From a phage, in sequence record PZ583741.1: a DNA stretch of 64,000 nucleotides; one strand, 5' to 3'. The position numbers and the translations under genes were made by a program. Shown in pieces: positions 4,275-57,362 of the stretch. Positions within the stretch are counted from its first letter, which is position 1, and each line of letters opens with the position of its first letter. The notes under the pieces are model-generated. The model made no database searches. It was not told the DNA's origin and saw only the letters and a program-made list of their open reading frames with translations.

Positions 4275-4279
4275 TATAA

Positions 4280-4370
4280 TCACAAGTGCAGCTAGTCCGG
4301 CCAGACGAAAAGCAACTCATCACTGCCTGCTGCATCCCGCCAAAAGATGACCCTGATGAGGAATCCAATA
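4280..4370 (+). promoter_or_regulatory. conserved 5' leader element, copy 1 (hairpin CUCAUCA / UGAUGAG overlapping the SD GAGGAA)
   Basis: ~85 bp with high identity to 42207..42290. Confidence 0.5.
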
Positions 4371-4871
4371 ATGACTCAAGAAGAATTAAAAAGCATCCTT
4401 AATTACAACAGTGAAACGGGAAAATTCCAATGGGTATCAATGAAGTGGAAAAAGTCAAACCGTGTTGGCAGCAAAAAGTCTAACGGCTATATGCAGGTGG
4501 CTATAGGTGGCAAGGTTTATTATCAGCACAGACTGGCTTGGCTTTATATGACTGGTGAGATGCCTGACTCAGAGATTGATCATATAAATGGAATTAGGGA
4601 TGACAACAGGTGGTGTAACTTGAGGTTAGCAACAAGATCACAAAATGAGATGAATACAGTACTCTCATCAGCAAACACCTCTGGTGTAAAAGGGGTTAGT
4701 TGGGATAAGAGGAATAAGAAATGGTGCGCAACAATAGTGATAAATAGAAAAACAGTATGGCTAGGAAGACATTCATCCATCGAGTCAGCAAAAGCGGTGA
4801 TAGAAAGAGCAAGAGCACATATACATGGTGATTTTGCTTGCGATGGAATAAGGCAAGAGAAGCGGGATTGA
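4371..4871 (+). CDS. HNH homing endonuclease with AP2 DNA-binding domain
   Basis: HRLAWLYMTGE...IDHINGIRDDNRWCNLR HNH motif; C-terminal AP2-like region. Confidence 0.85.
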   Translation: MTQEELKSILNYNSETGKFQWVSMKWKKSNRVGSKKSNGYMQVAIGGKVYYQHRLAWLYMTGEMPDSEIDHINGIRDDNRWCNLRLATRSQNEMNTVLSSANTSGVKGVSWDKRNKKWCATIVINRKTVWLGRHSSIESAKAVIERARAHIHGDFACDGIRQEKRD

Positions 4872-22339: not shown

Positions 22340-22370
22340 AAAGAAGCCCCTCACGGGGCTTTGTTCATTA
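22340..22370 (+). terminator. rho-independent terminator
   Basis: hairpin agcccctcacggggct. Confidence 0.55.
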
Positions 22371-23430
22371 TCTCGCTCATTAATTCAGGTGAGTATTTCA
22401 GCCATTCTGTTGCCCCATCAAAACCCGTCAGTCCTGCGCTTTCATATTTCTTATGGTAATACTTTTCAATGCGCATGGCTTCGGCTCCGGTCGTTTTTAT
22501 TTTATGTATGAGGTTGAAGTCGAATGGTGTTCCTGATTTAAGTTGCGATAATCTTTTTCTGATTTTATTAGTTATTCCAACCTTAATAATTCCATCGGCC
22601 ATCAAGAAATACACATATCCGGTCAATGATGGATTATATCCACCTTTTGCACAAGAAGGGCAGCCACTACCTTTCATATGTGTATTTGGTGATTGCATGA
22701 ATATCCCATGAATAGGGCAAACTATTTTTACCTTACTCATCACATTTCTATAATCAACAAGATGATAGTCATATCTTGAATCGTGAATTTTATTTGACCT
22801 GATGATGAACTCACCTACCTTTAAAGTTCTTCCTTCAACTCTAGACTGAATGCCGCATGACGGACACCCTTTGCCGTTTACATGTGATATGGCTCTCTGA
22901 GTAAATAACCCGTGTATGTTGCATTTAATATTAACATCGGCATCCATGCCATTAAAATTAGCAGCAGAGTAATCATATCTCAATCCATGCCTAGCAACAG
23001 CCCTAGAAATAAAACTATCAATAGAATGCGTTTTCTTTTCGGATATCCTTTTATATCCGCACAATCTACACCCTAAACCTTCAAGGTGTTTATAAGGAAG
23101 CTGTTCGAAATCCCCATGGGTTGCGCATGTTATTGTTATTTTCGTGTGTGAGTTTATATATTCAACTTTAGAATAGTCATAAGAGTCACCATGCTTTGCA
23201 ATCGCATCAGTCACAAACTCACGCGTTGTTTTCCTCTTACCTCCAGAGCATGATTGGCACCCGGCCCCATTCAAATGAGCGTCTGGAGTTTGCTCAAAAT
23301 CACCGTGATAATGGCACGTTATAATTATCTTCATCTTTGAACGGATGTACACTGATTTATCATAAACGTACTTATCGCCATGAACCGATTTAGCTTTGGC
23401 AATGAATTCTTCGGTAGTTAGCTTGCGCAT
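22351..23430 (-). CDS. GIY-YIG (T5orf172-type) nuclease with four N-terminal tandem zinc-binding repeats
   Basis: four ~65-aa repeats of C..HG.F.Q.P..H..G.GC..C; C-terminal GYVYFL...KVGIT GIY-YIG-like domain. Confidence 0.7.
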   Translation of the reverse strand: MRKLTTEEFIAKAKSVHGDKYVYDKSVYIRSKMKIIITCHYHGDFEQTPDAHLNGAGCQSCSGGKRKTTREFVTDAIAKHGDSYDYSKVEYINSHTKITITCATHGDFEQLPYKHLEGLGCRLCGYKRISEKKTHSIDSFISRAVARHGLRYDYSAANFNGMDADVNIKCNIHGLFTQRAISHVNGKGCPSCGIQSRVEGRTLKVGEFIIRSNKIHDSRYDYHLVDYRNVMSKVKIVCPIHGIFMQSPNTHMKGSGCPSCAKGGYNPSLTGYVYFLMADGIIKVGITNKIRKRLSQLKSGTPFDFNLIHKIKTTGAEAMRIEKYYHKKYESAGLTGFDGATEWLKYSPELMSEIMNKAP

Positions 23431-23564
23431 TTTGAACCCTCGGTTAAAGGTGGTTTGAAGTGATGCAGCAGGCGATAACCAATCGCTTTTCGGACGCCTC
23501 CTAGCTGCACTTATTATTGTACCATCAGCGTGCTAAAATACAACAATACGAGATGGAGACTATC

Positions 23565-41695: not shown

Positions 41696-41770
41696 CATTA
41701 ACAGCATGGCGTAGAATCTGTTACAATATCGAATAACGGGAAAAAAGCGGAATATTGATAGGGTTTATAT

Positions 41771-42187
41771 ATGGCTAAAAAGCTATTCAGTAAAGAAAAT
41801 CAACCACAAAATAAACGTGGGAAAGACAAGCGTAAGTTGCTCGTTGAAGCTCTTGAGAGAAAGGGGTTTAGTGAGGAAAAGCTCTATGACGCCATCGTTG
41901 AGATGGCGATGATTGAGCGTGATACTGCAATGATGAAAGAGCTTATCGTTCGATTCAGTCCGTTACCTAAGCCTGTCGCCCCTGTTTTTGAAGTTGATTT
42001 CCCTGATGACGGAACTCCGGTAGAGAAGATTGATGCTGTTATTCGTGGCATAGCTGCTGGTGTTATACCTGTGGACATTGGAAAGACATTTGCGGAGGTT
42101 ATCAGGACTGGGCTTGATATTGCTGAAGTTACCGAACTCGCCGCGCGCCTTGAGCGACTGGAGAAATTACTGGCGCAGCAACAGTAA
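41771..42187 (+). CDS. putative terminase small subunit
   Basis: 138 aa, immediately upstream of large terminase; coiled-coil C-terminus. Confidence 0.45.
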   Translation: MAKKLFSKENQPQNKRGKDKRKLLVEALERKGFSEEKLYDAIVEMAMIERDTAMMKELIVRFSPLPKPVAPVFEVDFPDDGTPVEKIDAVIRGIAAGVIPVDIGKTFAEVIRTGLDIAEVTELAARLERLEKLLAQQQ

Positions 42188-42206
42188 CTGATTTATAATA
42201 ATTAAT

Positions 42207-42290
42207 GCGGCTAGGGGGCACCCGAAAAGCGACTCATCACCGCCTGCCGCATTCACTTCAATGATGCCCTGATGAGGAATCTATATATGG
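42207..42290 (+). promoter_or_regulatory. conserved 5' leader element, copy 2 (same hairpin/SD arrangement as 4280..4370)
   Basis: aligned by eye to copy 1. Confidence 0.5.
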
Positions 42291-44806
42291 CACGCAAAAG
42301 ACTGTCAGCACCAGCAATTGAAAAACTCGAAGAGATTATTGGCGATGGCGTGATTGATACGCCTGAATCCGCGGTGTTCGGTGTTGTTAATACAGATAAG
42401 CAGATTGTTCGCAAACTAAAAATGACGCAAAGCGGAGTTGATGACGTTAGCGACTCTGATATTAACGTTGATCACCTGATACCAGAAAAGCTGGAAAAGC
42501 TACTTTACCCCAAGCGAAATAAGATTGTGTTTGGCGGGCGCGGATGCTTAGCCATCGGCACAATGGTTAGGATGTTTGATGGTAGCCTAAAACGCGTAGA
42601 GGATATCGCTGTTGGCGATAAGGTTATGGGTCCAGACAGTAAACCACGAAATGTTTTAAGCATCTGCCGTGGGTTTGATGACATGTATACGGTTCATCAA
42701 AAATATGCTGAGGACTACACTGTCAACTCAAGTCACATACTGTCATTACGAAAGATTCCATCTGCTATCAGTGACGAGACAAAAACACCGGATGGTAAAA
42801 GAATTTATCGTTATTACCCAAATGACCCTGAAATACTTAATATCGGTGTTTCAGAATATTTGTCGCGCGCAACTTCCACGAAGTTCCGTCATGTCTTTAA
42901 AGGGTGGCGAACAGGATGGGATTTTCAGGAACAAAGCGTTCCAATTGACCCGTACTTTCTTGGTTTATGGTTAGGTGATGGCTCATCTCGTAGTGTTGAA
43001 GTATGCACGCCTGATCCAGAGATAGTTGACTACCTTCACGGTGTGGCAAGCCAATATGGGATGCAGGTAAAGGTTCGCGACGATGATAGATGCCCTGTCT
43101 ATGCGATAACTAATGGTCGAGCTGCTGGCATGGGGAAAAACACCAACCCTTTACTAACTAAAATGCAGCAGCTTGGGGTGATTAATAATAAACACATACC
43201 TGACTGCTATATTAAAAACAGCAGACAGGTAAGACTTCAGATTCTGGCTGGGCTATTGGATACTGATTCGCATTACCACAAAGAAAAGAAAAGCTATTGT
43301 TTTACATCAATAAATAAAGATATAGCCTTCTCTTTGATGGATGTGGCAAGATCACTTGGCTTCAAGTCAAGCATAATCAAAAAGACCGATGTCACCTTTG
43401 AGTATAAAGGTGAGAAAAGAATATACGAAAAGGATGTGTGGGAGGTGTTCGTTAGTGGTGAACTTCATACAATCCCATGCCGAGTAAAAAGGAAGATAGC
43501 AGAGAAAACCAAGTCAACCCGTGGAAAGATGACTGAGGTGTCATTGTCTTATGCCGGGCATGGTGTATACGCTGGATTCACTCTTGATGGCGATCATCTT
43601 TTCTTGCTTGCTGATGGCACAGTTACACACAACAGCGGAAAAACAAGAACAGTAACTACAATACTTACGGAGCGTGCACGCTTTAAGCCTGACAGGATAG
43701 CTTGTTTCCGTGAGATTCAGCAGTCTATTGAGGATAGTTCGTATCAGGAACTGAAAGACGAGATTGACAGGAAGGGCGAGACAAAAGAGTTTCGCGTAAT
43801 CAACAACGAAATAACACACAAGGTAACGAAAGCAAAGTTCCGCTTTAAAGGTCTGTATCGCAACCAGACGACCGTTAAAGGCTTTGCTGGCATTACAGTC
43901 GCTTGGGTTGAGGAGGCTGAAAACGTTAGCCAGACAAGCTGGGAAATCCTCACTCCAACTGTTCGCGCTGATGGCTCTGAGATATGGGTGACATTCAACC
44001 CAAATAAGGAGCATGACCCCACATGGAAGACGTGGGTTGAGCCGTTTTATAGCAAACTGCGCTCAAGTGGCGGTATTTACGAAGACGAAGAAAACCTGAT
44101 TATTGAATGTAACTATTCAGATAATCCGTGGTTTTGGGATACGCCACTACCCAGCCAAATGCAACGAATGAAAGAGACAGACTTCGACCGCTATCAATGG
44201 GTTTGGGGTGGTCGCTTTAACAAGAGGAATGACGAGCAGGTCTTTGGCGGCAAATGGCGCATTGATAACTTTGAGGTTAAACCTGAATGGCACGGCCCAT
44301 ACTTCGGGATGGACTTCGGGTTTTCCACTGATCCTACCGCAATGATTGAAGTTTACATCGAAGAACTACCAGGTGCACGGCGCAACATTTATATTAATCG
44401 CGAATATGGCAAGGTTGGCCTTGAGATTACCGATACACCAGCTGCGATGGAGCAATCATTCCCGATGGCTAAGCGCGCGCGATGGTATGCAGACTGCGCT
44501 CGACCGGAAACCATCAGCCACATCAAGCGTTCTGGCTTTGATATTCATCCATGCACAAAATGGCCGGGAAGCGTTGAGGATGGCGTAACGTGGCTGCGCG
44601 GCTGCGACAGTATCATCATCCATGAGCGATGCAAGGAAATGCAGAATGAAGCGGCAATGTACAGCTATAAGGTTGATAAGCTGACCGGAAATGTACTCAC
44701 GGATATTGTTGATGCATATAACCATTACTGGGATGCCGTTCGCTATGCGCTTAATGACCACATCGTCCAGCGCGGTAGCGGAATGCTAATCCGGCGCAGG
44801 AGATAA
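42287..44806 (+). CDS. terminase large subunit, intein-containing
   Basis: Walker A GRG|SGKT split by intein; C-terminal nuclease region. Confidence 0.9.
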   Translation: MARKRLSAPAIEKLEEIIGDGVIDTPESAVFGVVNTDKQIVRKLKMTQSGVDDVSDSDINVDHLIPEKLEKLLYPKRNKIVFGGRGCLAIGTMVRMFDGSLKRVEDIAVGDKVMGPDSKPRNVLSICRGFDDMYTVHQKYAEDYTVNSSHILSLRKIPSAISDETKTPDGKRIYRYYPNDPEILNIGVSEYLSRATSTKFRHVFKGWRTGWDFQEQSVPIDPYFLGLWLGDGSSRSVEVCTPDPEIVDYLHGVASQYGMQVKVRDDDRCPVYAITNGRAAGMGKNTNPLLTKMQQLGVINNKHIPDCYIKNSRQVRLQILAGLLDTDSHYHKEKKSYCFTSINKDIAFSLMDVARSLGFKSSIIKKTDVTFEYKGEKRIYEKDVWEVFVSGELHTIPCRVKRKIAEKTKSTRGKMTEVSLSYAGHGVYAGFTLDGDHLFLLADGTVTHNSGKTRTVTTILTERARFKPDRIACFREIQQSIEDSSYQELKDEIDRKGETKEFRVINNEITHKVTKAKFRFKGLYRNQTTVKGFAGITVAWVEEAENVSQTSWEILTPTVRADGSEIWVTFNPNKEHDPTWKTWVEPFYSKLRSSGGIYEDEENLIIECNYSDNPWFWDTPLPSQMQRMKETDFDRYQWVWGGRFNKRNDEQVFGGKWRIDNFEVKPEWHGPYFGMDFGFSTDPTAMIEVYIEELPGARRNIYINREYGKVGLEITDTPAAMEQSFPMAKRARWYADCARPETISHIKRSGFDIHPCTKWPGSVEDGVTWLRGCDSIIIHERCKEMQNEAAMYSYKVDKLTGNVLTDIVDAYNHYWDAVRYALNDHIVQRGSGMLIRRRR
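42545..43633 (+). mobile_element. intein (363 aa) with LAGLIDADG homing endonuclease domain inside terminase Walker A motif
   Basis: starts CLAIGT, ends VTHN followed by extein Ser; two LAGLIDADG motifs (LGLWLGDGSS, LAGLLDTDSH). Confidence 0.8.
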
Positions 44807-45718: not shown

Positions 45719-46194
45719 TGATTGATTGGGTATCTTTATTTGATTATGATGGAGCGTCTTTGGTGTGGAAGCATGGAAGGGGAGGTGTTTCCGTTGGCAG
45801 CATTGCGGGAACGGTTAATGCTGGCGGGTACATTCAGCTCAAAGTTAACGGAAGATTTTATTATGCCCACAGAATTATATGGGAAATGCATAACGGTCCT
45901 ATACCGGAAGGTATGGAGATTGACCACATAAATCATAACAAGGCGGACAACAGGATTGAGAATTTGCGTCTTGTTCGACACAAAACTAACACTAAAAACG
46001 CGCCTAAATACAAAAATAACACCAGCGGCGTTACTGGTGTGAGTTGGTATAAGAGAGATAAAAAATGGCTAGCACAAATAATGGTTGATGGCAATTACAT
46101 ACGTCTTGGTCTTTTTGATAATTTCGAAGCAGCAGTCGACGTGAGAAAGGAAGCAGAACTAAGGTATGGATTTCACAAGAACCACGGCGCTTGA
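45718..46194 (+). CDS. HNH homing endonuclease with AP2 domain
   Basis: HRIIWEMHNGPIPEGMEIDHINH...DNRIENLRLV; C-terminal GFHKNHG. Confidence 0.85.
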   Translation: MIDWVSLFDYDGASLVWKHGRGGVSVGSIAGTVNAGGYIQLKVNGRFYYAHRIIWEMHNGPIPEGMEIDHINHNKADNRIENLRLVRHKTNTKNAPKYKNNTSGVTGVSWYKRDKKWLAQIMVDGNYIRLGLFDNFEAAVDVRKEAELRYGFHKNHGA

Positions 46195-46222: not shown

Positions 46223-47461
<1,239 letters not shown>

Positions 47462-47516
47462 GTTATCTTACAAGGCATCTCGTGGGGTGCCTCAGTAAGA
47501 CAACCGGAGATAGAGC

Positions 47517-47702
47517 ATGAAAACCAAAATGATTCACAAGTCAGAAGTAAAAATTGGCGACACGGTAATTCACTGCGGTGAGATGAAGACGGTTGGCATG
47601 GAAACATTTGGCAAGGATGAGTTTATGGGACTCCTACTGTGGGGTGATAGCTATCGCTGCGGCTACAAGATGGTTGAGGTTGTAACTGAGGTTAAGTTTT
47701 GA
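47517..47702 (+). CDS. hypothetical early protein
   Basis: 61 aa, GGAGA RBS. Confidence 0.5.
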   Translation: MKTKMIHKSEVKIGDTVIHCGEMKTVGMETFGKDEFMGLLLWGDSYRCGYKMVEVVTEVKF

Positions 47703-47746
47703 ATAGCACGAATTGCTAAACCTTCCGCAAGGCCGTTTGATATAGT
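47703..47746 (+). promoter_or_regulatory. B-module promoter cassette 1: ATAGCACGAATTGCTAAA - N20 - TATAGT
   Basis: palindrome TAGCA-N5-TGCTA; -10 hexamer 38 bp after motif start. Confidence 0.5.
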
Positions 47747-47966
47747 GGTCTTGTTGAAGCAAAACAATCAATCATGGGGTTACACAAATGCAAGTTTATA
47801 AATCACCTGGCGGCGCTCGTTACGTTGTTGTTGATGGCATGGTGTACTGCAAGCCGCTAACCGGATTCACATTTCGCTCGTCAATGACGGTGGATCGATA
47901 CCTTTAGTTGATAGGTTGGGGATTTCTTAGGTTTGAAAAGGTAATCAAGCCTATAATGACCGTCAA

Positions 47967-48010
47967 ATAGCACGAATTGTTAAAATGGGATTCATCCTGA
48001 ATGGTATGAT
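47967..48010 (+). promoter_or_regulatory. B-module promoter cassette 2 (variant TTGTTA; -10 TATGAT)
   Basis: same 38-bp spacing. Confidence 0.4.
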
Positions 48011-48162
48011 CCACACATCAACCACAAGAATGGAAGTTAAGTGACGATATACGAACATAAATTCAGCAGTATGGGTATTGATATGCTCCTGCACTATGTA
48101 GACGAAAAATACGCAAATCTCATGCTTAATACGCATGGCGGCACAATAACGAGGATTGAGAT

Positions 48163-48426
48163 ATGAGTAAGTACAACCGTGAGATTATCGGCCTGGATGG
48201 GGAAGTAACCACAGTGGATGTATATCGAGTCCTGGATGCATTCCAGGTAACAGACCAAGCTATACAGCACGCAATCAAGAAGATGCTGTGCACTGGACTT
48301 AGAGGGCATAAGGACTATCTTACTGACATTGAAGACTCCATTGAATCACTGCAAAAAGCCAAGGAACTTTACGATCAGCGCAAGAGTTACGAGCGGCGAT
48401 ACAATTTATCTTTTACAGATAAATAG
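48163..48426 (+). CDS. hypothetical early protein
   Basis: 87 aa, GAGGA RBS; stop TAG lies inside next motif. Confidence 0.5.
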   Translation: MSKYNREIIGLDGEVTTVDVYRVLDAFQVTDQAIQHAIKKMLCTGLRGHKDYLTDIEDSIESLQKAKELYDQRKSYERRYNLSFTDK

Positions 48427-48466
48427 CACGAATTGCTAAACCCGCTCAGAAGGGTTTTGTTATAGT
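48423..48466 (+). promoter_or_regulatory. B-module promoter cassette 3
   Basis: motif plus TGtTATAGT extended -10. Confidence 0.5.
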
Positions 48467-48495
48467 TAGTTCACACCAAACGAGAGGAAATAAAG

Positions 48496-48714
48496 ATGAT
48501 TACTATTAACCTGTCAGATAAACAAGCAGCAGAACTCAAGTCCATGCTTTCAATCTTTGAGAAGCCAAATGACCAGGTAATTGCCAAAGAGGTAGTGGCT
48601 CAGATTAACAACCAGCAATTCGACGTAAGTGACTTCGAGTCATCGCGCCAGTACGAGGCAATGAGTGTTAATGCTGCATACCTGACTAACTGGGATAATG
48701 CGACTAAGAAATGA
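48496..48714 (+). CDS. hypothetical early protein
   Basis: 72 aa, GAGAGGAAA RBS. Confidence 0.5.
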   Translation: MITINLSDKQAAELKSMLSIFEKPNDQVIAKEVVAQINNQQFDVSDFESSRQYEAMSVNAAYLTNWDNATKK

Positions 48715-48860
48715 TTTTATACATACATGAGTACTGGACGGGGAAGTTTAACACAGTTCGACATGTCCGTGTTTACGAAGATTATGTAAATGCATTCAAT
48801 CAGCAGAAGGTTCTTGGTGGCACCATCAAGGTTTGCGATGTTGTGGATGAGATTTACTAA
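48711..48860 (+). CDS. small hypothetical protein (49 aa)
   Basis: manual ORF, ATGA overlap. Confidence 0.35.
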   Translation: MILYIHEYWTGKFNTVRHVRVYEDYVNAFNQQKVLGGTIKVCDVVDEIY

Positions 48861-48904
48861 ATAGCACGAATTGCTAAAGCAGTCTTGGGGTAATTTGTTA
48901 TAGT
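48861..48904 (+). promoter_or_regulatory. B-module promoter cassette 4
   Basis: motif plus TGtTATAGT. Confidence 0.5.
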
Positions 48905-48934
48905 TACCACATCAAAACTAACGAGGTTATAAGA

Positions 48935-49039
48935 ATGAGTGAATTAATTAAAACTATCGCGGACTATCCATTTGCTTCGCTTTTTCTTGCTATTGCAATA
49001 TATGAAATTGTAAAGATTATTGTCAAATGTATTAAATAG
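48935..49039 (+). CDS. small membrane peptide (34 aa)
   Basis: manual ORF, GAGG RBS. Confidence 0.3.
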   Translation: MSELIKTIADYPFASLFLAIAIYEIVKIIVKCIK

Positions 49040-49079
49040 CACGAATTTCTAAAACATTATCGGGGTATCTTACTATAGT
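49036..49079 (+). promoter_or_regulatory. B-module promoter cassette 5 (variant TTTCTA)
   Basis: motif plus TATAGT at fixed spacing. Confidence 0.45.
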
Positions 49080-49109
49080 TACCCCATCAAAACGAAACAG
49101 GAAGCAGAA

Positions 49110-49289
49110 ATGAAATTTCAACAAGGCGAGCCAAAGCTACAAGTCAACCACTTCGATGGTTACGCAACATTCATCATAGCCCAGGCTTGCGGGATGCGAG
49201 ATGAACCTCACGTTCACACCATTCACTTAACAGAAGAACAGGCACGAGAACTGGCTTACGAAATTCTTGAGCAATTGAACCGAATTTAA
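49110..49289 (+). CDS. hypothetical protein (59 aa)
   Basis: GGAAG RBS. Confidence 0.4.
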   Translation: MKFQQGEPKLQVNHFDGYATFIIAQACGMRDEPHVHTIHLTEEQARELAYEILEQLNRI

Positions 49290-49338
49290 CGCGCATAAAA
49301 CGCATTCTAACGAACGATAATTTAAGTAAGGCGATTCT

Positions 49339-49497
49339 ATGATTAAGGTTGTTTTTATTGCTGATGATGGTGTTTATCCATTATTATCTAATGGTGATGT
49401 TATTTACGTGCAAGACATGGGTTGCGCATATATCTATACAGATGAGTTTGGTGACTCTTATTATATTGAGAAATGGGAAGTTGAGGAGATTGCATGA
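49339..49497 (+). CDS. small protein, paralog 1 (52 aa)
   Basis: MIKVVFIADDG...; similar to next ORF. Confidence 0.4.
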   Translation: MIKVVFIADDGVYPLLSNGDVIYVQDMGCAYIYTDEFGDSYYIEKWEVEEIA

Positions 49498-49655
49498 TTA
49501 AGCTTGTTTATGTGGGTGAGAGTGATTATGTGGCGCTCATTCAGAGTGGTGATGTGTTCTTCGCAGAGATGAGTGATGATGGTAGTTTCTACATCGTAAA
49601 GAACAAGAATGGCGAAGATATCTACCTTTCAAAAGATGAGGTCATCATTTACTAA
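49494..49655 (+). CDS. small protein, paralog 2 (53 aa)
   Basis: MIKLVYVGESD...; tandem duplicate. Confidence 0.4.
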   Translation: MIKLVYVGESDYVALIQSGDVFFAEMSDDGSFYIVKNKNGEDIYLSKDEVIIY

Positions 49656-49780
49656 TGGATAACTACGAATCACCAGTAGAGTGGTGTAAGCGAATGCAGG
49701 ACGAAGCTAAAACTGGTGAAGAGGCGATGGCTTACTACGAACTGGCGCAAATTTGGATGGAACGTGAGAAGAAAGAATGA
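49655..49780 (+). CDS. small hypothetical protein (41 aa)
   Basis: manual ORF with overlapping start/stop. Confidence 0.3.
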   Translation: MDNYESPVEWCKRMQDEAKTGEEAMAYYELAQIWMEREKKE

Positions 49781-49920
49781 GCTTCACTGAATACGTTATC
49801 GCATGCGAGAGACTGGTCTTTGACATGAAGACTTTTCACTGGTTCATCATCAAGGATTTAATTAAGCCTTACAAGCAAGGCGTTACGCCAGAGGCTTTTG
49901 TTAAGTCATTCTACAAATAG
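49777..49920 (+). CDS. small hypothetical protein (47 aa)
   Basis: manual ORF; stop TAG inside next motif. Confidence 0.35.
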   Translation: MSFTEYVIACERLVFDMKTFHWFIIKDLIKPYKQGVTPEAFVKSFYK

Positions 49921-49960
49921 CACGAATTGCTAAACGCAGTCGCCATGGATGGCATATAAT
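49917..49960 (+). promoter_or_regulatory. B-module promoter cassette 6 (-10 TATAAT)
   Basis: motif plus consensus -10 at fixed spacing. Confidence 0.5.
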
Positions 49961-49993
49961 TACCACATCAACACAACGAAGAGAGATATAATA

Positions 49994-50140
49994 ATGAAAA
50001 ATGTATTTGGCATCAGCTATGAAGAAGAGTTTGTTGATTGCCTTATTTACCTGAATGAGATCTACGGAGATGAGTTTGAATGTGATGGTGATTCACTTCA
50101 TGCAAAAATAGAACTTGAAACATTTGGGGAGGTTGTCTAA
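49994..50140 (+). CDS. hypothetical protein (48 aa)
   Basis: ATG at 49994 in ORF 49949..50140. Confidence 0.4.
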   Translation: MKNVFGISYEEEFVDCLIYLNEIYGDEFECDGDSLHAKIELETFGEVV

Positions 50141-50382
50141 TGATGTTTGGATTATCAGAAGCACACTTCAACGCAGTTAAACGCCAGGCAGCAAAGTTGA
50201 ACGAAGAGTACAGCAAGTTATCGCCAAAACAGCGCAAGGACGATAAGCAGGTTGCGGCATTGATTTCAAAGATGTGGGAGCCAGTTTTCACAATCATTAG
50301 TCGAGACCGCTTTGTTTGGACCAGTGGGTATCTTAAGGGTAGAGTAGGTCACGACGAGAATGGGAATAGTCTTTATGAGTAA
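50140..50382 (+). CDS. hypothetical protein
   Basis: 80 aa, GGGAGG RBS. Confidence 0.5.
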   Translation: MMFGLSEAHFNAVKRQAAKLNEEYSKLSPKQRKDDKQVAALISKMWEPVFTIISRDRFVWTSGYLKGRVGHDENGNSLYE

Positions 50383-50557
50383 TTGCAATAAGCATAGGTA
50401 TAAGTACGCTTTCAGTTCAAAACTTACAGCCCACGACATAAAACTACTTAATCTAGGTTACTTCAAATCCAGCAAAAATGAAAATCATGTCGGGGATTAT
50501 AGATCATTTTATGAGTGCGTTAATTGCGGCGAGATGATTGCGATGGGGGTATTATGA
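50360..50557 (+). CDS. hypothetical protein (zinc-finger-like)
   Basis: 65-aa ORF; start uncertain (50360 or 50375). Confidence 0.35.
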   Translation: MGIVFMSNCNKHRYKYAFSSKLTAHDIKLLNLGYFKSSKNENHVGDYRSFYECVNCGEMIAMGVL

Positions 50558-50640
50558 GTGAGTTAACAATCTGGTTTATCGCAGGTCTGATTACTTGGGC
50601 TTACTTTTTAATCGTTTAGATTGAGCTTGTTAAAAAGAGC

Positions 50641-50669
50641 TTGCATCACTGACAGGAATTATCTAATAT
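50641..50669 (+). promoter_or_regulatory. sigma70-like promoter (TTGCAT - 17 bp - TAATAT) upstream of tRNA
   Basis: hexamers and spacing read from sequence. Confidence 0.4.
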
Positions 50670-50838
50670 TAACCACGTAGACAAACGAGGCCACCAGGTG
50701 GCAACGGCGCACGGAGCGCACTACACGGCAAGTCCGTAGCTCATTAAGTAGCGTATGCGGCATTAAGACCTAGCGCAAATAGGCAGATTAATCGGCTGTA
50801 TCAGGCAGCCCCGGAGCCGTAACCGGGACTCATTCAAA

Positions 50839-50916
50839 GCTCTGCTAGCTCAATTGGACAGAAGCAACGACCTTCTAAGTCGCAGGTTACTGGTTCGAAT
50901 CCAGTGCGGAGCGCCA
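50839..50916 (+). tRNA. tRNA-Arg (anticodon UCU), CCA encoded
   Basis: 7-bp acceptor stem, GG in D-loop, anticodon loop CUUCUAA, T-loop TTCGAAT, 3' GCCA. Confidence 0.75.
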
Positions 50917-50931
50917 ATAAAGGAGTTCATT

Positions 50932-51114
50932 ATGTGGGATGTGAAGTTGTCAATTCGCTTAATGGGCCGCTCGTGCAAGAATTGCACTCAAGAATACATC
51001 GCGTCAGTTGCCGCAATCAGCGCTGAGGATGCGGTAGCGAAAGTAAAGGAGATGTCAGGCGCTGACCCTGACACCCACAAATTCCTGGTAGCTTACGTTC
51101 GTGAGCAAAAGTAA
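50932..51114 (+). CDS. hypothetical protein (60 aa)
   Basis: AAGGAG RBS; track ORF 50854 overlaps the tRNA so start moved. Confidence 0.45.
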   Translation: MWDVKLSIRLMGRSCKNCTQEYIASVAAISAEDAVAKVKEMSGADPDTHKFLVAYVREQK

Positions 51115-51154
51115 AAAGTGTTATACCCTCGTTAAGTTTCGTTTCTCTCGTTGT

Positions 51155-51184
51155 TTTTAGCCCTCGCTTGAGGGCTTTTTTTCG
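51155..51184 (+). terminator. rho-independent terminator
   Basis: hairpin agccctcgcttgagggct plus T6. Confidence 0.6.
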
Positions 51185-51225
51185 TCTGCAATATGCTATA
51201 ATCTGGAATCAACAAAGGAGGATTT

Positions 51226-51732
51226 ATGAGCAAAGCAGCATTAAAGATGGGTGAGGGAAATTTCAAGGCGCTCTACAACAAGAAGTATGGCGACATTGCT
51301 ATGGTGGCAATCAACCGCAAGTACACGCCTGAGGAAGTTTTCGATTTCGCCGTTAGATACTTCTCCTGGGCTGAGAGCGAGGCAATTAAGGCTATTGAGA
51401 CGGCTGCTTTCCAGGGTGTGGTTAGCGAGAGCCTCGTACACAAGCCTAGAGTATTCACCTTAACTGGGCTGGCGCTCTTTATGGGTGTCAATATCAATAG
51501 ATTCGCTCGCTGGCGTACTGAGGCTGGATACTCTGATGTGATGGAATTCATTGATAACGTTATTTACGAGCAGAAGTACCAGCTTGGTGTCGCAGGCATC
51601 ATCAACTCTACCATCGTTGGTAAAGAGCTAGGAATTGATAAGCCGCAGGAGATTAAGATTAGCAACAACTCCACAGCTAACGATGTTGACAGTATGAAGG
51701 AAGCACTTGAGTCCGTGATCAGTAAGCTATAG
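51226..51732 (+). CDS. terminase small subunit
   Basis: 168 aa, HTH-like TLTGLALFMGVNINRFARW; AAGGAGG RBS; upstream of large terminase. Confidence 0.6.
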   Translation: MSKAALKMGEGNFKALYNKKYGDIAMVAINRKYTPEEVFDFAVRYFSWAESEAIKAIETAAFQGVVSESLVHKPRVFTLTGLALFMGVNINRFARWRTEAGYSDVMEFIDNVIYEQKYQLGVAGIINSTIVGKELGIDKPQEIKISNNSTANDVDSMKEALESVISKL

Positions 51733-51800
51733 CACTTATTGTTAAAAGAATGGGCCCAATCAATGAGATAATTGGGTCACTAACTTAACGAGGTGATGAT

Positions 51801-52313
51801 ATGAATTGGCATGATTATTTTGAATACAAAGATGGGAAGATTTACTGGAAAGATTACGATAGCGAGAAGCTTGGAAGGAGAAGGATACAGCGAAGATTCA
51901 TAGGGAAAGAGGTTGGCGGCATTGATAAAAGCCTAGGGTATGTTAGGGTAAACATGCCTGGTAAAAAATATTGGGTTCATAGAATAATCTGGGAAATGCA
52001 TAACGGAGCAATACCAGAAGGTATGCAAATTGACCATATAAATCATGTTAGAAATGATAACAGGATAGAAAACATTAGGTTAGTTACAATTCAGGAAAAT
52101 AGAAAGAATCAGTCAATAAATTCTAGGAATAAGACCGGGGTTACCGGAGTCTGCATAGTATCTAGGACTGGCAAGTATGTAGCTCAAATAAAAAAGGATG
52201 GAGAGAATATTCACTTGGGATTCTTTGATAATATTCACGACGCATCGATTGTCAGGGCGAGGGCTGAATTTATTCTTGGGTATCATAAAAACCACGGGAG
52301 GAAAGATGAGTGA
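51801..52313 (+). CDS. HNH homing endonuclease with AP2 domain, between terminase subunits
   Basis: HRIIWEMHNGAIPEGMQIDHINH...DNRIENIRLV; C-terminal GYHKNHG. Confidence 0.85.
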   Translation: MNWHDYFEYKDGKIYWKDYDSEKLGRRRIQRRFIGKEVGGIDKSLGYVRVNMPGKKYWVHRIIWEMHNGAIPEGMQIDHINHVRNDNRIENIRLVTIQENRKNQSINSRNKTGVTGVCIVSRTGKYVAQIKKDGENIHLGFFDNIHDASIVRARAEFILGYHKNHGRKDE

Positions 52314-53877
52314 TTTGATAGTTTGGGATGAGTTAAATCATGCGCAGAAGATGGCTATCAAGGCCATCTCTGAGCATAGTTTCGAGGGGTTCTTGCGGTG
52401 TTTCTTCCAGATAACTCAGGGCGAGAGATTCAAAATGAATTGGCATGCGAAGTACCTTTGCCGCGTCATTGATGAGATTCTTGAGGGTAAGAGAAAGGAT
52501 ACCATCATAAACGTATCTCCGGGATCTGCCAAAACCGAACTGTTTAGCATCCACTTCCCTGTATATAGCATGATTAAGATTAAGAAGGTTAGGAATCTTA
52601 GTTTGTCGTTCTCTGACTCATTGGTTAAGCGCAACTCCAAGCGCGTAAGGGATTTGATAAAATCAAAGGAGTTCCAGGAGCTTTGGCCCTGCACCTTTGG
52701 AACGTGCAGGGATGACGAGATTCAGGTTCTTGATGAGAATGGCAAAGTTAGGTTTGAGTCTATATCTAAGGCGATGGCTGGTCAGGTGACAGGAAGCAGG
52801 GGCGGCTACATGACTGACGATTATAGTGGTTGCATAATGCTGGATGACCCACTAAAGCCTGATGACGCGTTAAGTAATGTAAGAAGAGAGGCTGTCAATA
52901 TGCTTCTCAAGAACACAATCCGTTCACGTCGAGCTAGCTCAGTAAAGGGAAAAGAAACGCCAATACTTTCCGTGCAGCAAAGACTTCATGTTCTGGACAC
53001 TAGCCACTTCATGGAGTCAGGGCAAATGGGCATAAAGTTCGACGTAGTGAAAGTTCCAGCCATAGTCACAGAGGATTACGCCGACACGCTTCCTGATTGG
53101 ATCAAACAACAATTTATTGATGATGTTCTTTCATCACCATTTGTAGAGCGGGATGGAGTTAAGTATTACAGCTACTTTCCGGCAAAGGAGTCAATAGAAG
53201 ACCTGATGGCTATGTGGGATGCTGACCCGTACACGTTCCTTAGTCAGTACCAGCAGGAACCTGTAGCTCTGGGCGGCAATCTTATTAATGTGGATTGGTT
53301 CCAGCGCCTTAGTGATACATTCATACCTCCAGCCAAGTATGATTATCGATTCATCACATGCGATACCGCGATGACCACTAAAAGTTACAGCGACTTCTCT
53401 GTTCTTCAGTTGTGGGGCTATAAAGATGCTAAGATTTACCTTATTGATCAGCGCAGGGGTAAATGGGAGGCCCCAGAGTTGGAGGCTGAACTTCTGGACT
53501 TTGAGAAGAAATCAAGGGCAACCAGTCAGTCAGATGGTATCCTCAGAAAGATTATTATCGAGAAGAAAGCGTCTGGTATCGGCCTGATTCAATCAGCTGG
53601 CAGGGTTATGCGAACACCGATAGAGCCATACGTACCGGATAATGACAAGCTAACCAGGGTGATGAGTGCACTACCACAGATTAAGGCTGGTAACGTAGTT
53701 CTTCCAGAGTCATCGCCGTGGCTAAACGGATTGCTCACTGAGGTTGCGGCTTTTACGGCAGATGACTCGCATAAGCACGACGACCAAATTGACTGTCTAA
53801 CAATGGCGGTAAACCTTGTACTTAACATCGCTGATGATCCTAAGGCGAGACTGATGCGCATAGCGGGAATGAAATAG
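52306..53877 (+). CDS. terminase large subunit
   Basis: Walker A-like VSPGSAKTE; C-terminal nuclease Asp residues; overlaps HNH stop by 8 nt. Confidence 0.8.
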   Translation: MSDLIVWDELNHAQKMAIKAISEHSFEGFLRCFFQITQGERFKMNWHAKYLCRVIDEILEGKRKDTIINVSPGSAKTELFSIHFPVYSMIKIKKVRNLSLSFSDSLVKRNSKRVRDLIKSKEFQELWPCTFGTCRDDEIQVLDENGKVRFESISKAMAGQVTGSRGGYMTDDYSGCIMLDDPLKPDDALSNVRREAVNMLLKNTIRSRRASSVKGKETPILSVQQRLHVLDTSHFMESGQMGIKFDVVKVPAIVTEDYADTLPDWIKQQFIDDVLSSPFVERDGVKYYSYFPAKESIEDLMAMWDADPYTFLSQYQQEPVALGGNLINVDWFQRLSDTFIPPAKYDYRFITCDTAMTTKSYSDFSVLQLWGYKDAKIYLIDQRRGKWEAPELEAELLDFEKKSRATSQSDGILRKIIIEKKASGIGLIQSAGRVMRTPIEPYVPDNDKLTRVMSALPQIKAGNVVLPESSPWLNGLLTEVAAFTADDSHKHDDQIDCLTMAVNLVLNIADDPKARLMRIAGMK

Positions 53878-53917
53878 CACAAATTGCTAAACACTAAAGC
53901 CACGGATGGCGTATAGT
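53874..53917 (+). promoter_or_regulatory. B-module promoter cassette 7 (variant ATAGCACAAATTGCTAAA)
   Basis: terminase stop TAG is inside motif; TATAGT at fixed spacing. Confidence 0.45.
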
Positions 53918-53946
53918 TACTTCACACAAAAGAGAGGAGAAGAAAG

Positions 53947-54279
53947 ATGAAGGCAGTATTTAAAGGTTATAAAAAAGCTGGTCGTTTGGAATTTACTATT
54001 GGTAAGATTTATGAGTTATCAGAAACACGCGGAGTGGGTGGATATATGGTGGTGACTGATGACGGTGGCTTTCGGGCAATATTTATCCCAGACAACATCT
54101 ATGATTTCGAGGTGTTGATCCCAGATGAATTTATCGGTAAAGAAAAGCAATTCAAATATTACATCAATGGCGAAGCTGTTTCTAAAGTCAAGTTCGATGA
54201 TACACTGTTATGCGTCAAGGAATTTAAATCTGATGGCATTGATACATCATCAATCAAGTTCGAAGTAAAATTCGAGTAA
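53947..54279 (+). CDS. hypothetical protein
   Basis: 110 aa, GAGAGGAG RBS, own promoter and terminator. Confidence 0.5.
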   Translation: MKAVFKGYKKAGRLEFTIGKIYELSETRGVGGYMVVTDDGGFRAIFIPDNIYDFEVLIPDEFIGKEKQFKYYINGEAVSKVKFDDTLLCVKEFKSDGIDTSSIKFEVKFE

Positions 54280-54298
54280 CCACAAAAGCTATGATAAA

Positions 54299-54325
54299 CT
54301 AGCCCCTAAATGGGGCTTTTTTATT
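54299..54325 (+). terminator. rho-independent terminator
   Basis: hairpin agcccctaaatggggct plus T6. Confidence 0.6.
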
Positions 54326-54335
54326 GGAGAAAAAC

Positions 54336-55562
54336 ATGGTCAAGACAGACAGCTACGCCAATATCTTTCTAGGCGGCAGTGATGGTAGTGAGATTTACGG
54401 GAGCTTGCAGAACCAAGCGCCTACAATTCTGGCTTCGCTTTATGCGGATAATGCACTGGTGCGTCGAATTATCGACACAATCCCGGAGACGGCATTAGCG
54501 GCAGGATTCCACATTGACGGCATTGATGACGAGCCTGCATTCTGGTCTCGCTGGGACTATCTGGAGTTGACAAGGCACATCAACGAAGCGTGGTCGTGGG
54601 CTAGATTGTTCGGTGGAGCGGCAATTGTCGCTATCGTTAAGGACAACAGAGCTCTAACAAGCCCAGTCAGAGAAGGTTCTGAGCTTGAAACTGTTCGCGT
54701 ATACGACCGCACACAAGTAAAAGTCCAAACTCGAGAGGAGAATCCGCGCAACGCACGTTTTGGTAATCCACTAACCTATCGCATCACCACTAATGAGAGC
54801 GATATGTTTTACGATGTGCATTACAGCCGCATTCATATCATCGACGGAGAGCGAATCCCTAACGTAATGCGTCGGCAAAATGATGGCTGGGGCCGCAGCG
54901 TTCTCTCCAGTGATATTCTTGACTCAATCAAGGATTACACCAACTGCGAACGACTAGCGACTCAACTGCTCAAGCGTAAACAGCAAGCGGTCTGGAAAGT
55001 CAAGGACCTGGCATTGCTTTGTGATGATAGTGAAGGAGTTGGCGCGGCTCGTTTACGTCTCGCTCAAGTTGATAACAACAGCGGAGTTGGTCAGGCAATT
55101 GGCATTGATGCGGAATCGGAAGAATACAGCATTCTGAACTCTGATATTGGTGGGATTGATGCGTTCCTGGATAAGAAGTTCGACAGAATCGTTGCTCTGA
55201 GCGGCATCCATGAAATAATCCTGAAGAACAAGAACGTCGGCGGCTTATCATCAAGCCAGAATACAGCGCTTGAGACATTCCATAAGCTAGTCGATCGAAA
55301 GCGTAACGCTGAACTGCTGCCGATTCTCGGGTTCCTGATTCCGTTCATTTCAGACGAGCAAGAATGGTCAGTGGAGTTTAATCCTCTGGCTCAGGAATCA
55401 AGTAAAGATAAAGCGGAGACCCTTGAGAAGAACGTAAACAGTATAGCAACACTAATTGCAGCTGGCGCTATGGATACTAGCGAAGCGCGTGATACACTAC
55501 GAACTATCGCGCCAGAGATTAAGATTGGCGATGGCAATATCGAACCTAAAGAACCAGTCTAG
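54336..55562 (+). CDS. putative portal protein
   Basis: 408 aa; between large terminase and scaffold. Confidence 0.5.
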   Translation: MVKTDSYANIFLGGSDGSEIYGSLQNQAPTILASLYADNALVRRIIDTIPETALAAGFHIDGIDDEPAFWSRWDYLELTRHINEAWSWARLFGGAAIVAIVKDNRALTSPVREGSELETVRVYDRTQVKVQTREENPRNARFGNPLTYRITTNESDMFYDVHYSRIHIIDGERIPNVMRRQNDGWGRSVLSSDILDSIKDYTNCERLATQLLKRKQQAVWKVKDLALLCDDSEGVGAARLRLAQVDNNSGVGQAIGIDAESEEYSILNSDIGGIDAFLDKKFDRIVALSGIHEIILKNKNVGGLSSSQNTALETFHKLVDRKRNAELLPILGFLIPFISDEQEWSVEFNPLAQESSKDKAETLEKNVNSIATLIAAGAMDTSEARDTLRTIAPEIKIGDGNIEPKEPV

Positions 55563-55631
55563 GAAGCAATGGCGACGACAGAGGAACCTAATGAATGATG
55601 AATTTGATGGCTTTTAGTGAGGAGAATTGGG

Positions 55632-56717
55632 ATGTCTAAAGCCCGCTATGACAGTGTAAAGTTTAAAGCAACAATCGACGAGAATGGATTCTTAGTTGAC
55701 ACTCCGGTAGTCGCTCGTCTCGGCGTGCAAGTCTACTACATGGAAGATGGTCGAACGGTTCGAGAGTTTCGCCCGGCAGAGGAGGTTTTCAATGATGAAT
55801 CTCTGGCAAGCTACCAGGGTAAGCCAATGACTCTTGATCATGTTTTCGTTAACTCAGAGAACGCTAAAGAGGTAGTAGTCGGCTCAGTTGCTGGAAAGGC
55901 AGAGCCATTAGGCAGCTCCGTGGTTGCTCCAATTGTTATTTACGATAATGCCGCCATTCAGGAAGCTATGTCAGGTAACGCAAAGGAGTTATCCGTTGGA
56001 TACTCATCAGTCATTGATTACACCCCAGGTTGGGGTGACCCTGTTACTGGTGAGTACTTCCTTAAGTCTGAAAGTGAGCTATTCGACGTACCAGAAGGAT
56101 GGCAGGAGTTCGACGCAATTCAGCGTGACATTAAAGTGAACCATCTCGCAATGGTATATCGCGGTCGCGCAGGTATTGCCAAATTGAATATGGACGGTGA
56201 GCAGGAAAACCCGTATACTACTGACGTTGATATCAATAAAGAGGATAAACAGGAAATGATTAAGATTAAACTAGACGGCGCGCAGGAATTCGAAGTCGCC
56301 CCAGAAATCGCTTCTCACATCGAAGCGCTGAACGCAAAGGCTGACACTGCAATCGCAGAGCGCGACTCGCTGAAAGCTAAGGTAGATGCAATTCCAGCTG
56401 AAATCGAGAAAGCAGTAGCTAAAGCTAAAGCTGATGCCGATGCCCTAGCCGCTCTGGTTGCTGTTGCTGCTGAAGCTGGTGTTAAGGCTGACGGCCTGGA
56501 TGCTAAAGGCATTAAAGTTGCTTACGTTAAAGAAGTCTCCAGTCTTGATGTTTCCGAGAAGTCTGACGCTTACATCGACGCAGCGTTCGACATTGCCAAA
56601 GAATCTGATAAAATGGCTGAAGTACGTAAAGCGACTACCGCTTCCGACAAATCTGACAGCGCCGAAGAGCCTAAGAAATTAGACCCGCGTGCTCGTTTAG
56701 CTAAAATTAAGAAATAA
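55632..56717 (+). CDS. putative scaffolding protein / prohead protease
   Basis: GAGGAG RBS; Ala/Lys/Glu-rich coiled-coil C-terminus. Confidence 0.55.
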   Translation: MSKARYDSVKFKATIDENGFLVDTPVVARLGVQVYYMEDGRTVREFRPAEEVFNDESLASYQGKPMTLDHVFVNSENAKEVVVGSVAGKAEPLGSSVVAPIVIYDNAAIQEAMSGNAKELSVGYSSVIDYTPGWGDPVTGEYFLKSESELFDVPEGWQEFDAIQRDIKVNHLAMVYRGRAGIAKLNMDGEQENPYTTDVDINKEDKQEMIKIKLDGAQEFEVAPEIASHIEALNAKADTAIAERDSLKAKVDAIPAEIEKAVAKAKADADALAALVAVAAEAGVKADGLDAKGIKVAYVKEVSSLDVSEKSDAYIDAAFDIAKESDKMAEVRKATTASDKSDSAEEPKKLDPRARLAKIKK

Positions 56718-56729
56718 GGAGTTATAAAC

Positions 56730-57239
56730 ATGGCAATTCGTTCCGTAGCACTGGCTGGTATGGTTTCTGATACCTCTCTGTATAACATCGACGGCGCTTG
56801 CGTAGTTGGCGGCAGCGATGCAATTCCGGTTGGTACTGTTGTTGGTGTAACAGCCGCTCAGCCTATAGATGGTCACAAAGTTGTTGGCCTTCCAGCTGTA
56901 ACTGGCACGGCAGTTAAACCTTATGGTGTTGTTGTTAAATCTCATTACGAGACTCCAGATGGCACAGCTCGCGTAAATGAAGCAGTTAACGTAATGACTC
57001 ATGGTCGCATCTGGGTTCGCACCACTTTAGCAGCCGCGCCAGTTTTTGGTAGCAAGGTTTTCGTAAACGCAAGTGGTGTAGTTGTTGCTGAAGCGGCTAC
57101 TACTACTTGGGAAACTGGTTTTACATTTGCTGGCGGTTACATCGCAAACACTGGCACAGACCCACAAAACCTGAGCGTTGATGGTGCCCTAGTTGAGGTT
57201 CAGCTTATCCAATCCACGGACTCAACCGTTGCAGCATAA
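56730..57239 (+). CDS. putative head decoration protein
   Basis: 169 aa between scaffold and major capsid genes. Confidence 0.45.
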   Translation: MAIRSVALAGMVSDTSLYNIDGACVVGGSDAIPVGTVVGVTAAQPIDGHKVVGLPAVTGTAVKPYGVVVKSHYETPDGTARVNEAVNVMTHGRIWVRTTLAAAPVFGSKVFVNASGVVVAEAATTTWETGFTFAGGYIANTGTDPQNLSVDGALVEVQLIQSTDSTVAA

Positions 57240-57253
57240 TAGTTAAGACTAAA

Positions 57254-57280: not shown

Positions 57281-57362
57281 GCCTATCATCTCATCATTGC
57301 GTGGTCTAAAAACTCGTGTATAATGAACACGTAGACACCTAACTGAAAAGGAACAATAAAGA

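Follow-up and report, generated by a model that had tools for sequence, protein, structure and literature searches.

A three-way-junction leader of the int-alpA RNA family before a phage large terminase gene: a candidate mobile regulator of translation

Why should a phage carry, directly in front of its large terminase gene, a leader that recurs elsewhere in the same genome? The DNA analysed here, called the window below, is a stretch of 64,000 nucleotides of phage sequence (record PZ583741.1). An initial annotation had placed the second copy of a conserved leader at 42207-42290, coordinates that cover the element referred to here as copy 2, and had proposed that the start codon and Shine-Dalgarno (SD) sequence of the terminase gene lie inside the 3' arm of a hairpin. 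The repeat proved genuine. The segment 42204-42289 repeats 4285-4373 (copy 1), with 82% column identity over ~130 nt in a pairwise alignment of 42180-42305 with 4255-4385, a common core of 30 nt and a match to an Rfam family. This core, CGAAAAGCRACTCATCACYGCCTGCYGCAT, occurs exactly twice in the 64 kb, once in each of the two copies, and gave no match in 100 dinucleotide shuffles. The 15-mer CCCTGATGAGGAATC, which precedes both start codons, is also exact in copies 1 and 2, with two occurrences in all; its near-matches with at most three mismatches number 7 against 1.5 expected. As none of the 100 shuffles held two matches and the element is recognised by Rfam, a chance repeat was ruled out. 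A third copy, overlooked in the initial annotation, was found on the minus strand at 23511..23428 by a self-BLAST of the window, in which the match spans 23511..23448. With R1, a covariance model of 67 family members, exactly three copies were detected in the window, at 56.0 (copy 2), 49.6 and 48.2 bits, and the next best score was 11.6 bits; because the three copies are in the seed of R1, these scores show the absence of a fourth copy and nothing more.

Bases 1-127 of the window recur exactly at 47277-47403. The window is thus a composite of a closed phage genome of ~47.3 kb, followed by unrelated DNA. All three leader copies lie within the first genome, which is ~92% identical to Salmonella phage Segz_1 and ST44-like phages, and none lies in 47404-64000. 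A tRNA of its own (50839-50913) and another ORF of terminase size (52198-53877) are found in this second part. Other short repeats of 74-86% identity are also present in the window: 45868-45936 resembles 51978-52046, linking the first genome and the second part; 5874-5968, inverted, resembles 51978-52072 and 45868-45963; 48852-48921 resembles 49027-49096; and 48421-48499 resembles 53872-53950 and 49915-49963.

Copy 2 stands directly 5' of the large terminase gene (TerL), as had been claimed; the product matches Pfam Terminase_3 at aa 449-643 and Terminase_3C at aa 676-824, and its intein matches Hom_end_hint (aa 87-171), Hom_end (aa 304-367) and LAGLIDADG_3 (aa 316-370). The parts of the locus are as follows.

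42194-42199, plus strand: -10 box TATAAT, 4 nt 5' of P1, with neither a good -35 nor a TGn
42204-42253, plus strand: core, the int-alpA three-way junction (Rfam RF02996, own model R1, covariation)
42204-42211 / 42246-42253, plus strand: stem P1 (sequence reading)
42214-42216 / 42221-42223, plus strand: stem P2 (sequence reading)
42229-42231 / 42241-42243, plus strand: stem P3 (sequence reading)
UA, GAAAA and CU, plus strand: junction segments (sequence reading)
42232-42240, plus strand: loop L3, ACUCAUCAC, with the core CUCAUCA (42233-42239) complementary to sites A and B
42262-42266, plus strand: site A, UGAUG, 9 nt after P1 (L3 complementarity)
42270-42276, plus strand: site B, UGAUGAG, overlapping the SD by 3 nt (L3 complementarity)
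42274-42278, plus strand: SD of TerL, GAGGA (sequence reading)
42287-42289, plus strand: ATG of TerL (sequence reading)
42287..44806, plus strand: large terminase gene, 839 aa, with an intein carrying a LAGLIDADG homing endonuclease at ~aa 87-450 (Pfam, PHROG terminase families)

The core belongs to a known family of candidate structured RNAs. Against Rfam RF02996 (int-alpA RNA), copy 2 scores 42.6 bits, above the gathering score of 35.8 (E 1.9e-5, model positions 1-71 of 71). Copies 1 and 3 reach 28.4 and 30.1 bits, under the gathering score but at full length, with E values of 3.4e-4 and 1.2e-4 in searches of 251 nt. Being a member of a catalogued family, the element itself is not new. RF02996 is named after a position between an integrase gene and alpA, and no copy in the window has this context: the neighbours are spanin and HNH genes (copy 1), tape-measure and endonuclease genes (copy 3), and a hypothetical gene and TerL (copy 2). 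The int-alpA context is a naming convention and not a structural criterion. The window copies share with the family its three helices and the nucleotides of the junction, CUAG, CGAAAAGC and GCCUG; the latter are present in all three copies and stand in uppercase in the Rfam consensus. They differ in their setting, a siphovirus of Segzyvirus/Macdonaldcampvirus type that has three of them, not one by int or alpA, and in their cargo, which consists of two homing endonucleases and an intein-bearing terminase. The Rfam structure line, moreover, has no pseudoknot; the two-site complementarity and SD overlap described below are new here. A search of the literature for int-alpA returned a single full-text match, a table listing, and the main text of the motif discovery paper does not contain the name.

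The fold is that of an outer stem P1 of ~8 bp around P2 (3-4 bp) and P3 (4-5 bp, with a loop of 7-9 nt). Relatives were collected by a fixed-pattern scan of viral contigs, in which 120 loci gave 79 non-redundant instances with intact helices. Over 67 distinct cores and 15 pairs, 94% of the cells are paired against 63% in shuffled alignments; 336 cells are changed on both sides against 103, and double-sided changes are found in 11 of the 15 pairs. Covariation scores 0.775, compared with 0.174 after shuffling and 0.06-0.14 for partners slid out of register. Four pairs are fixed by the retrieval pattern, and instances with a P1 shorter than 5 bp had been filtered out, so that the percentage of pairing is in part a product of construction; the filter does not account for the different kinds of pair found at positions left free. 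The invariance of the junction nucleotides in this pattern-selected sample also follows by construction and adds nothing.

The plain hairpin of the initial annotation had to be given up. It is not predicted by single-sequence folding, where the full leaders have z-scores between -0.3 and +0.4, none of them significant, and the cores have -0.7 to -2.3; such thermodynamic folds recover P1 and neither P2 nor P3. The comparative data give instead the RF02996 junction, with a P3 loop able to pair with either of two downstream repeats. What survives of the proposal is the complementarity between an upstream segment and one that overlaps the SD; in copy 3 and family-wide, the two covary. As to the claim that SD and start codon are inside the paired arm, only the GAG of GAGGA is paired, and the ATG lies outside, 11 nt downstream. 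A hammerhead ribozyme was also considered, prompted by CUGAUGAG together with CGAAA in copies 1 and 2. There is no Rfam hammerhead match, and CUGAUGAG is outside the junction, where it is site B itself; copy 3 and most family members have unrelated sequence there.

The corresponding parts of copies 1 and 3 are these.

4275..4373, plus strand: copy 1 with extended -10 (RF02996 in a local search, own model R1)
4272-4280, plus strand: extended -10 of copy 1, TGaTATAAT (sequence reading)
4285-4292 / 4329-4336, plus strand: P1 of copy 1 (sequence reading)
4316-4322, plus strand: L3 core of copy 1, CUCAUCA (sequence reading)
4346-4350, plus strand: site A of copy 1, GAUGA; 4354-4360: site B, UGAUGAG (L3 complementarity)
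4358-4362, plus strand: SD of copy 1, GAGGA; ATG at 4371 (sequence reading)
23428..23524, minus strand: copy 3 with extended -10 (RF02996, own model R1)
23524..23516, minus strand: extended -10 of copy 3, TGgTACAAT (sequence reading)
23511..23504 / 23469..23462, minus strand: P1 of copy 3 (sequence reading)
23482..23476, minus strand: L3 of copy 3, UUGGUUA (sequence reading)
23455..23451, minus strand: site A of copy 3, AACCA; 23446..23440: site B, UAACCGA, with one G.U pair (L3 complementarity)
23441..23437, minus strand: SD of copy 3, GAGGG; ATG at 23430 (sequence reading)

In copies 1 and 2, the loop core CUCAUCA faces GAUGA or UGAUG at site A and UGAUGAG at site B. In copy 3, the loop and both sites have changed together, to UUGGUUA, AACCA and UAACCGA. 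The same rule is followed in the family at large. A loop forms with its own tail a duplex of -8.6 kcal/mol on average, and with swapped tails one of -5.4; both sites are present in 52 of 78 members, compared with 11.6% in swaps without a common 5-mer. The 78 members have 49 distinct loops. With one representative for each loop, the longest complementary run is 5.27 nt in zone A and 5.49 nt in zone B, against 3.71 and 4.26 when shuffled (p ~1e-8 each). Complementarity is retained at site A in 36 and at site B in 41 of the 49 loop types. By the family medians, site A starts 9 nt after P1 and site B ends 7 nt before the start codon; in 36 of the 49 loop types, site B covers at least 2 nt of the SD or lies over the AUG. 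The coverage of the SD is 3 nt in copies 1 and 2 and 2 nt in copy 3, and in the group that precedes Rha-type regulators the start codon itself is site B. Even in the Rfam consensus, the loop CCuU is complementary to the tail ...AgGG, though the structure line leaves this tail unpaired. This two-site design appears not to have been annotated for the int-alpA family.

Which of the two sites is the stronger partner differs from member to member. In copy 2, L3 would form a duplex of -4.2 kcal/mol with site A and -9.9 kcal/mol with site B; for copies 1 and 2, the predicted duplex is the stronger one with site B (-9.9 against -4.2 and -5.6 kcal/mol with site A), and site A is the nearer. Across the family there is no asymmetry in strength, B being stronger in 27 members, A in 28, and the two equal in 19 (p = 0.59). 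A kinetic timer based on a systematic difference between A and B is therefore unsupported family-wide. In copies 1 and 2, in-frame AUGs also occur within sites A and B (42272-42274, 4347-4349 and 4356-4358), all upstream of the real starts and none preceded by an SD. For this reason, TerL starts at 42272 in the program-made list of ORFs, and the HNH gene behind copy 1 at 4347.

The position of the element relative to transcription and to tRNA genes is also regular. It lies on the coding strand in every case, with a median of 35 nt (range 27-67 nt) from P1 to the start codon. Every copy in the window has a -10 box 4 nt before P1 and none has a good -35, and because of the latter a two-hexamer promoter scan misses the three boxes. 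Of the 79 family members, 18 have a -10-like hexamer, agreeing at 5 or more of the 6 positions, whose end lies 3-9 nt 5' of P1; at random positions the rate is 2.8%. Another 12 of the 79 begin after a tRNA 3' end, eleven of them at 1-4 nt and one at 14 nt. From the -10 boxes and this adjacency to tRNA 3' ends, the element seems to be built for the 5' end of an RNA. The initial annotation would have had to be abandoned if the TerL transcript started 3' of the structure. Such a start is unlikely as far as the sequence can tell, because the gap of 34 nt between P1 and the ATG is too small for a promoter, and because a read-through transcript from the promoter-like site at 41698-41727 would also carry copy 2. 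The -10 box is the only promoter-like signal at copy 2. The eleven tRNA-adjacent loci (L003, L005, L015, L024, L032, L047, L078, L091, L094, L095 and L119) are viral contigs, mostly of 50-95 kb, several of them from IMG sample 3300045988. ARAGORN calls several of the adjoining tRNAs suppressors (tRNA-Stop or SeC). There are hints here of 5'-end formation by tRNA processing, and of phages with recoded stop codons.

5'-terminal stems are known stabilisers of mRNAs. The leader might be mainly a device of the mRNA 5' end, that is, a stabiliser, a processing signal or an insulator, in which L3:A is a structural pseudoknot and site B an inert duplicate. Such a reading would suit a P1 that begins at the predicted transcript start or 1-4 nt past a tRNA 3' end, and an Rfam model that stops at site A, whose tail pairs with the loop. 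However, site B has been kept complementary as often as site A, and it sits on the SD or AUG, unlike an inert duplicate. We regard this reading as very improbable.

The question of whether the leader belongs to the terminase gene can be answered by comparison with relatives. The genes behind copies 1 and 3, and the ends of their cassettes, are as follows.

4371..4871, plus strand: HNH homing endonuclease gene, 166 aa, behind copy 1 (phrog_99, E 3e-66)
4908-4926, plus strand: terminator-like hairpin after the copy-1 HNH gene (terminator scan)
22351..23430, minus strand: endonuclease gene, 359 aa, behind copy 3 (phrog_681 and phrog_559)
22361..22344, minus strand: terminator-like hairpin after the copy-3 endonuclease gene (terminator scan)

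In Shigella phage Sf11 and in IME207, a leader 99-100% identical to that of copy 2 is followed by an HNH gene and then by an intein-less TerL, which starts at the end of the HNH gene. The HNH protein of Sf11 type is 46% identical to that of copy 1 (E 2e-43), and leader and ORF form one continuous stretch of homology. The window lacks this HNH ORF, the gap reaching from one ATG to the next, and the leader is joined directly to the intein-bearing TerL. Segz_1 and ST44 have the same fusion with a TerL of 839 aa. C1 and SeSz-2, which have neither HNH gene nor intein, have no leader before TerL. At the slot of copy 3, where the endonuclease gene lies antisense between the tape-measure gene and tail genes, the relatives without the cassette have an amidase gene (Segz_1) or a small ORF (SeSz-2) and no leader, and the homology breaks off immediately 5' of the -10 box that belongs to the cassette. 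From these comparisons it follows that the leader is part of a mobile unit, which consists of the -10 box, the junction, sites A and B with the SD, a cargo gene and a terminator. The idea of a leader specific to the essential terminase gene is thus refuted by the leaderless TerL of C1 and SeSz-2 and by the identical leader before the HNH gene of Sf11 and IME207; it was inherited from an HNH homing-endonuclease cassette, and the TerL copy is a remnant of this cassette now serving an essential gene. Among the relatives, the locus holds either the TerL intein or, just before a TerL without intein, a free-standing HNH gene, and in some it holds neither insertion; the TerL locus looks like a place of competing selfish elements. 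Near-identical terminator hairpins end both endonuclease cassettes, AAGCCCCGTAATGGGGCTT at 4908-4926 and AAGCCCCGTGAGGGGCTT at 22344-22361, which suggests that the copy-1 and copy-3 cassettes share both ends.

A reading at the level of DNA was also considered. PeSLs, mobile promoter/stem-loop cassettes of T4-type phages that flank variable cargo genes, are a precedent for regulatory cassettes that move (PMC2839356, PMC4122927). The leader might then be an operator, or a recombination or homing boundary of mobile cassettes. It is true that the homology between phages with and without a cassette breaks exactly at the boundary of -10 and leader, and that across genera the leader (98.6-100%) is better conserved than the flanking genes (88-93%). 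Like PeSLs, the leader is a short regulatory module that travels with variable cargo. PeSLs are, however, promoter-plus-terminator motifs of another sequence family, which are thought to mediate recombination, and no loop-to-SD complementarity has been described for them. The stems covary without conservation of sequence, orientation and distance to the start codon are fixed, and the joint changes of loop and target include G.U pairs, copy 3 being an example; for these reasons an RNA is to be preferred to a protein-binding DNA site. In a strand check, 13 G.U against 8 A.C were counted adjoining the pairings, counts that are no proof by themselves. A DNA-level role seems extremely improbable.

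The genes downstream of the leader offer little to a sensor. Among 64 proteins encoded downstream in the family, about one quarter are nucleases or HEG-like; others are replication initiators, Rha/antirepressors, integrase, Dam methylase and structural genes. As a sensor, the junction would bind a small ligand or a phage or host protein that shifts L3 between A and B, in the manner of a riboswitch or a protein-dependent switch. There is no metabolic theme among the nucleases, replication initiators, Rha/antirepressors, tail and terminase genes, and no result points to a candidate ligand or protein. The junction nucleotides, uppercase in the Rfam consensus while the surrounding stems are free, are typical of a binding pocket or tertiary core, and a spread over several phyla would suit a universal ligand or factor. 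A sensor is nonetheless quite improbable, and all three of these readings, sensor, stabiliser and DNA element, are less likely than control of translation.

Most likely, to judge from the positions of the sites, the leader throttles translation of the gene that follows it. Our main reading, to which we give a probability of about 60%, is that the int-alpA leader is a self-contained, cis-acting governor of translation that is mobile together with its cargo. A junction of ~50 nt would form at the transcript's 5' end or close to it, followed by the repeats A and B, each complementary to the P3 loop. With L3 on site B, the SD would be occluded and initiation low; with L3 on the nearer site A, the SD would be free. 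As the same loop bases are used, L3:A and L3:B are mutually exclusive, and the partition between the two pseudoknots would set the amount of protein per transcript and probably also the duration of its synthesis. Since A and B are equal on average family-wide, the sequence gives neither a dominant state nor a balance-setter. The module would move as a unit, typically with costly genes and above all with free-standing homing endonucleases, and the TerL copy would be the leftover of an endonuclease cassette that now governs TerL.

Site A would act as a competitor, and the leader would act in cis. Pairing of a loop near the ribosome-binding site, in the form of a pseudoknot, can activate translation elsewhere, for instance in IncI-alpha repZ. 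Here L3:B probably represses rather than activates, because site B sits on the SD or AUG and because there is a precedent in T4, where RNA structures that sequester the ribosome-binding site limit translation of homing endonuclease genes (I-TevI/II/III, segB, mobE) (PMC2988022). The likeness is in an RNA structure that limits translation of a phage homing endonuclease, as proposed for the window leaders. The T4 structures are simple local hairpins, relieved by a late promoter that starts inside them, whereas in the window the promoter-like -10 is upstream of the whole structure, and the partner of the SD is the loop of a conserved junction that has a second, competing site. No stable local SD hairpin of the T4 type common to the three copies was found in minimum-free-energy folds.

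The main competitor of cis action is an antisense RNA. Rfam files RF02996 as a gene (sRNA) and not as cis-regulatory, and an RNA of similar layout exists in the C4 RNA of phages P1/P7 (RF01695, in clan CL00128 with c4-a1b1); in P1, its target b2 lies over the SD of the next ORF on the same transcript, and sites a1 and b1 are duplicates. C4 RNA is processed by RNase P, and the CI RNA of P4 is a comparable system. By analogy, the junction might be released as an RNA of ~50-70 nt, by termination at a U-run after P1 in some members and by processing in others, and L3 would then bind A or B on other transcripts, giving copy-number-dependent feedback or an element-specific 'immunity'. Such trans action would be compatible with the cis model. 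C4 and the leader have in common that they are encoded in the leader of the operon they control (or would control), that an outer stem encloses a small hairpin and a large-loop hairpin with the antisense sequence, and that this loop is complementary to a site over the SD of the next ORF, ~30-40 nt downstream, with duplicated target sites. They differ in that C4 is longer (77-87 nt) with two antisense segments, a' in the junction and b' in the loop; that its duplicate sites are upstream of the RNA, those of int-alpA being between RNA and SD; and that it serves the immunity/antirepressor operon of temperate phages. Searched with the C4 model, the surroundings of copies 1 and 3 gave no match at E <=10 and the window as a whole gave none at gathering level, nor did our own family model match P1 c4. 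A common family is thereby ruled out, and the functional analogy alone is kept.

The diversity of the loops fits release in trans to some extent. The 49 specificities among 78 members, each matched twice, look like the outcome of selection for orthogonality, and two specificities are found together both in this genome and on locus L024. A T-rich run directly follows P1 in 9 of 79 members, and members that adjoin a tRNA would be excised by tRNA processing. On the other side, there is no U-run after P1 in the three window copies and hence no obvious 3' end, neither Rfam C4 nor our own model connects the two families, and the element is always 27-67 nt from a start codon on the same strand, which would be needless for a free-standing sRNA gene. 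Trans action thus appears rather unlikely, and cis control of the following gene is preferred.

If cis control is correct, an orphan Rfam motif gains a concrete and testable mechanism, made of a loop, a decoy site and an SD site, and RF02996 would be reclassified from a stand-alone sRNA to a cis-acting leader. Free-standing homing endonucleases of siphoviruses would then carry their own expression control along, and such control could stay behind on an essential host gene such as TerL. For the engineering of translation control, the family would also be a small scaffold of natural origin, in which dozens of loop/target pairs are apparently orthogonal. In annotation, promoter-plus-leader units could serve to mark mobile cassettes in phage genomes. 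Also apparently unannotated for int-alpA are the placement at the 5' end, the link to cassettes of homing endonucleases, the origin of the TerL copy as a relic and the wide spread of the family.

A wider and more speculative proposal, which we consider doubtful as a whole, is that RF02996 is not an sRNA of enterobacterial islands but a programmable riboregulator module that spans phyla, in which a constant junction scaffold presents a freely evolvable 'address' loop matched to a decoy and to the ribosome-binding site of the cargo. Homing endonucleases, antirepressors and replication genes would be its companions in horizontal transfer. Besides acting in cis, it would be set free as an antisense RNA like C4, perhaps excised by the enzymes of tRNA processing. 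Each selfish cassette would thereby own a private, orthogonal limiter of expression, and one leftover copy would have been co-opted to control an essential packaging gene. In bacterial genome contigs, 16 of 120 loci from the pattern scan passed the helix filters, most matches being chance; the 16, which show the two-site loop complementarity as well, come from Burkholderia, Pseudomonas, Acinetobacter, Planctomycetota, Acidobacteriota and others. The E. coli copies of the int...alpA islands score 51-55 bits with our own family model and have the same L3/A/B design. There the motif comes directly after the int stop codon and immediately 5' of an ORF of the DUF6387 family, which is followed by an AlpA-like gene, and a similar copy is present in ~200 of 5426 complete genomes. 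Two of these E. coli copies (L250, 3513-3600; L251, 3494-3584) are in a P4-like island by yicC, together with antA/B, ash and icd-like genes.
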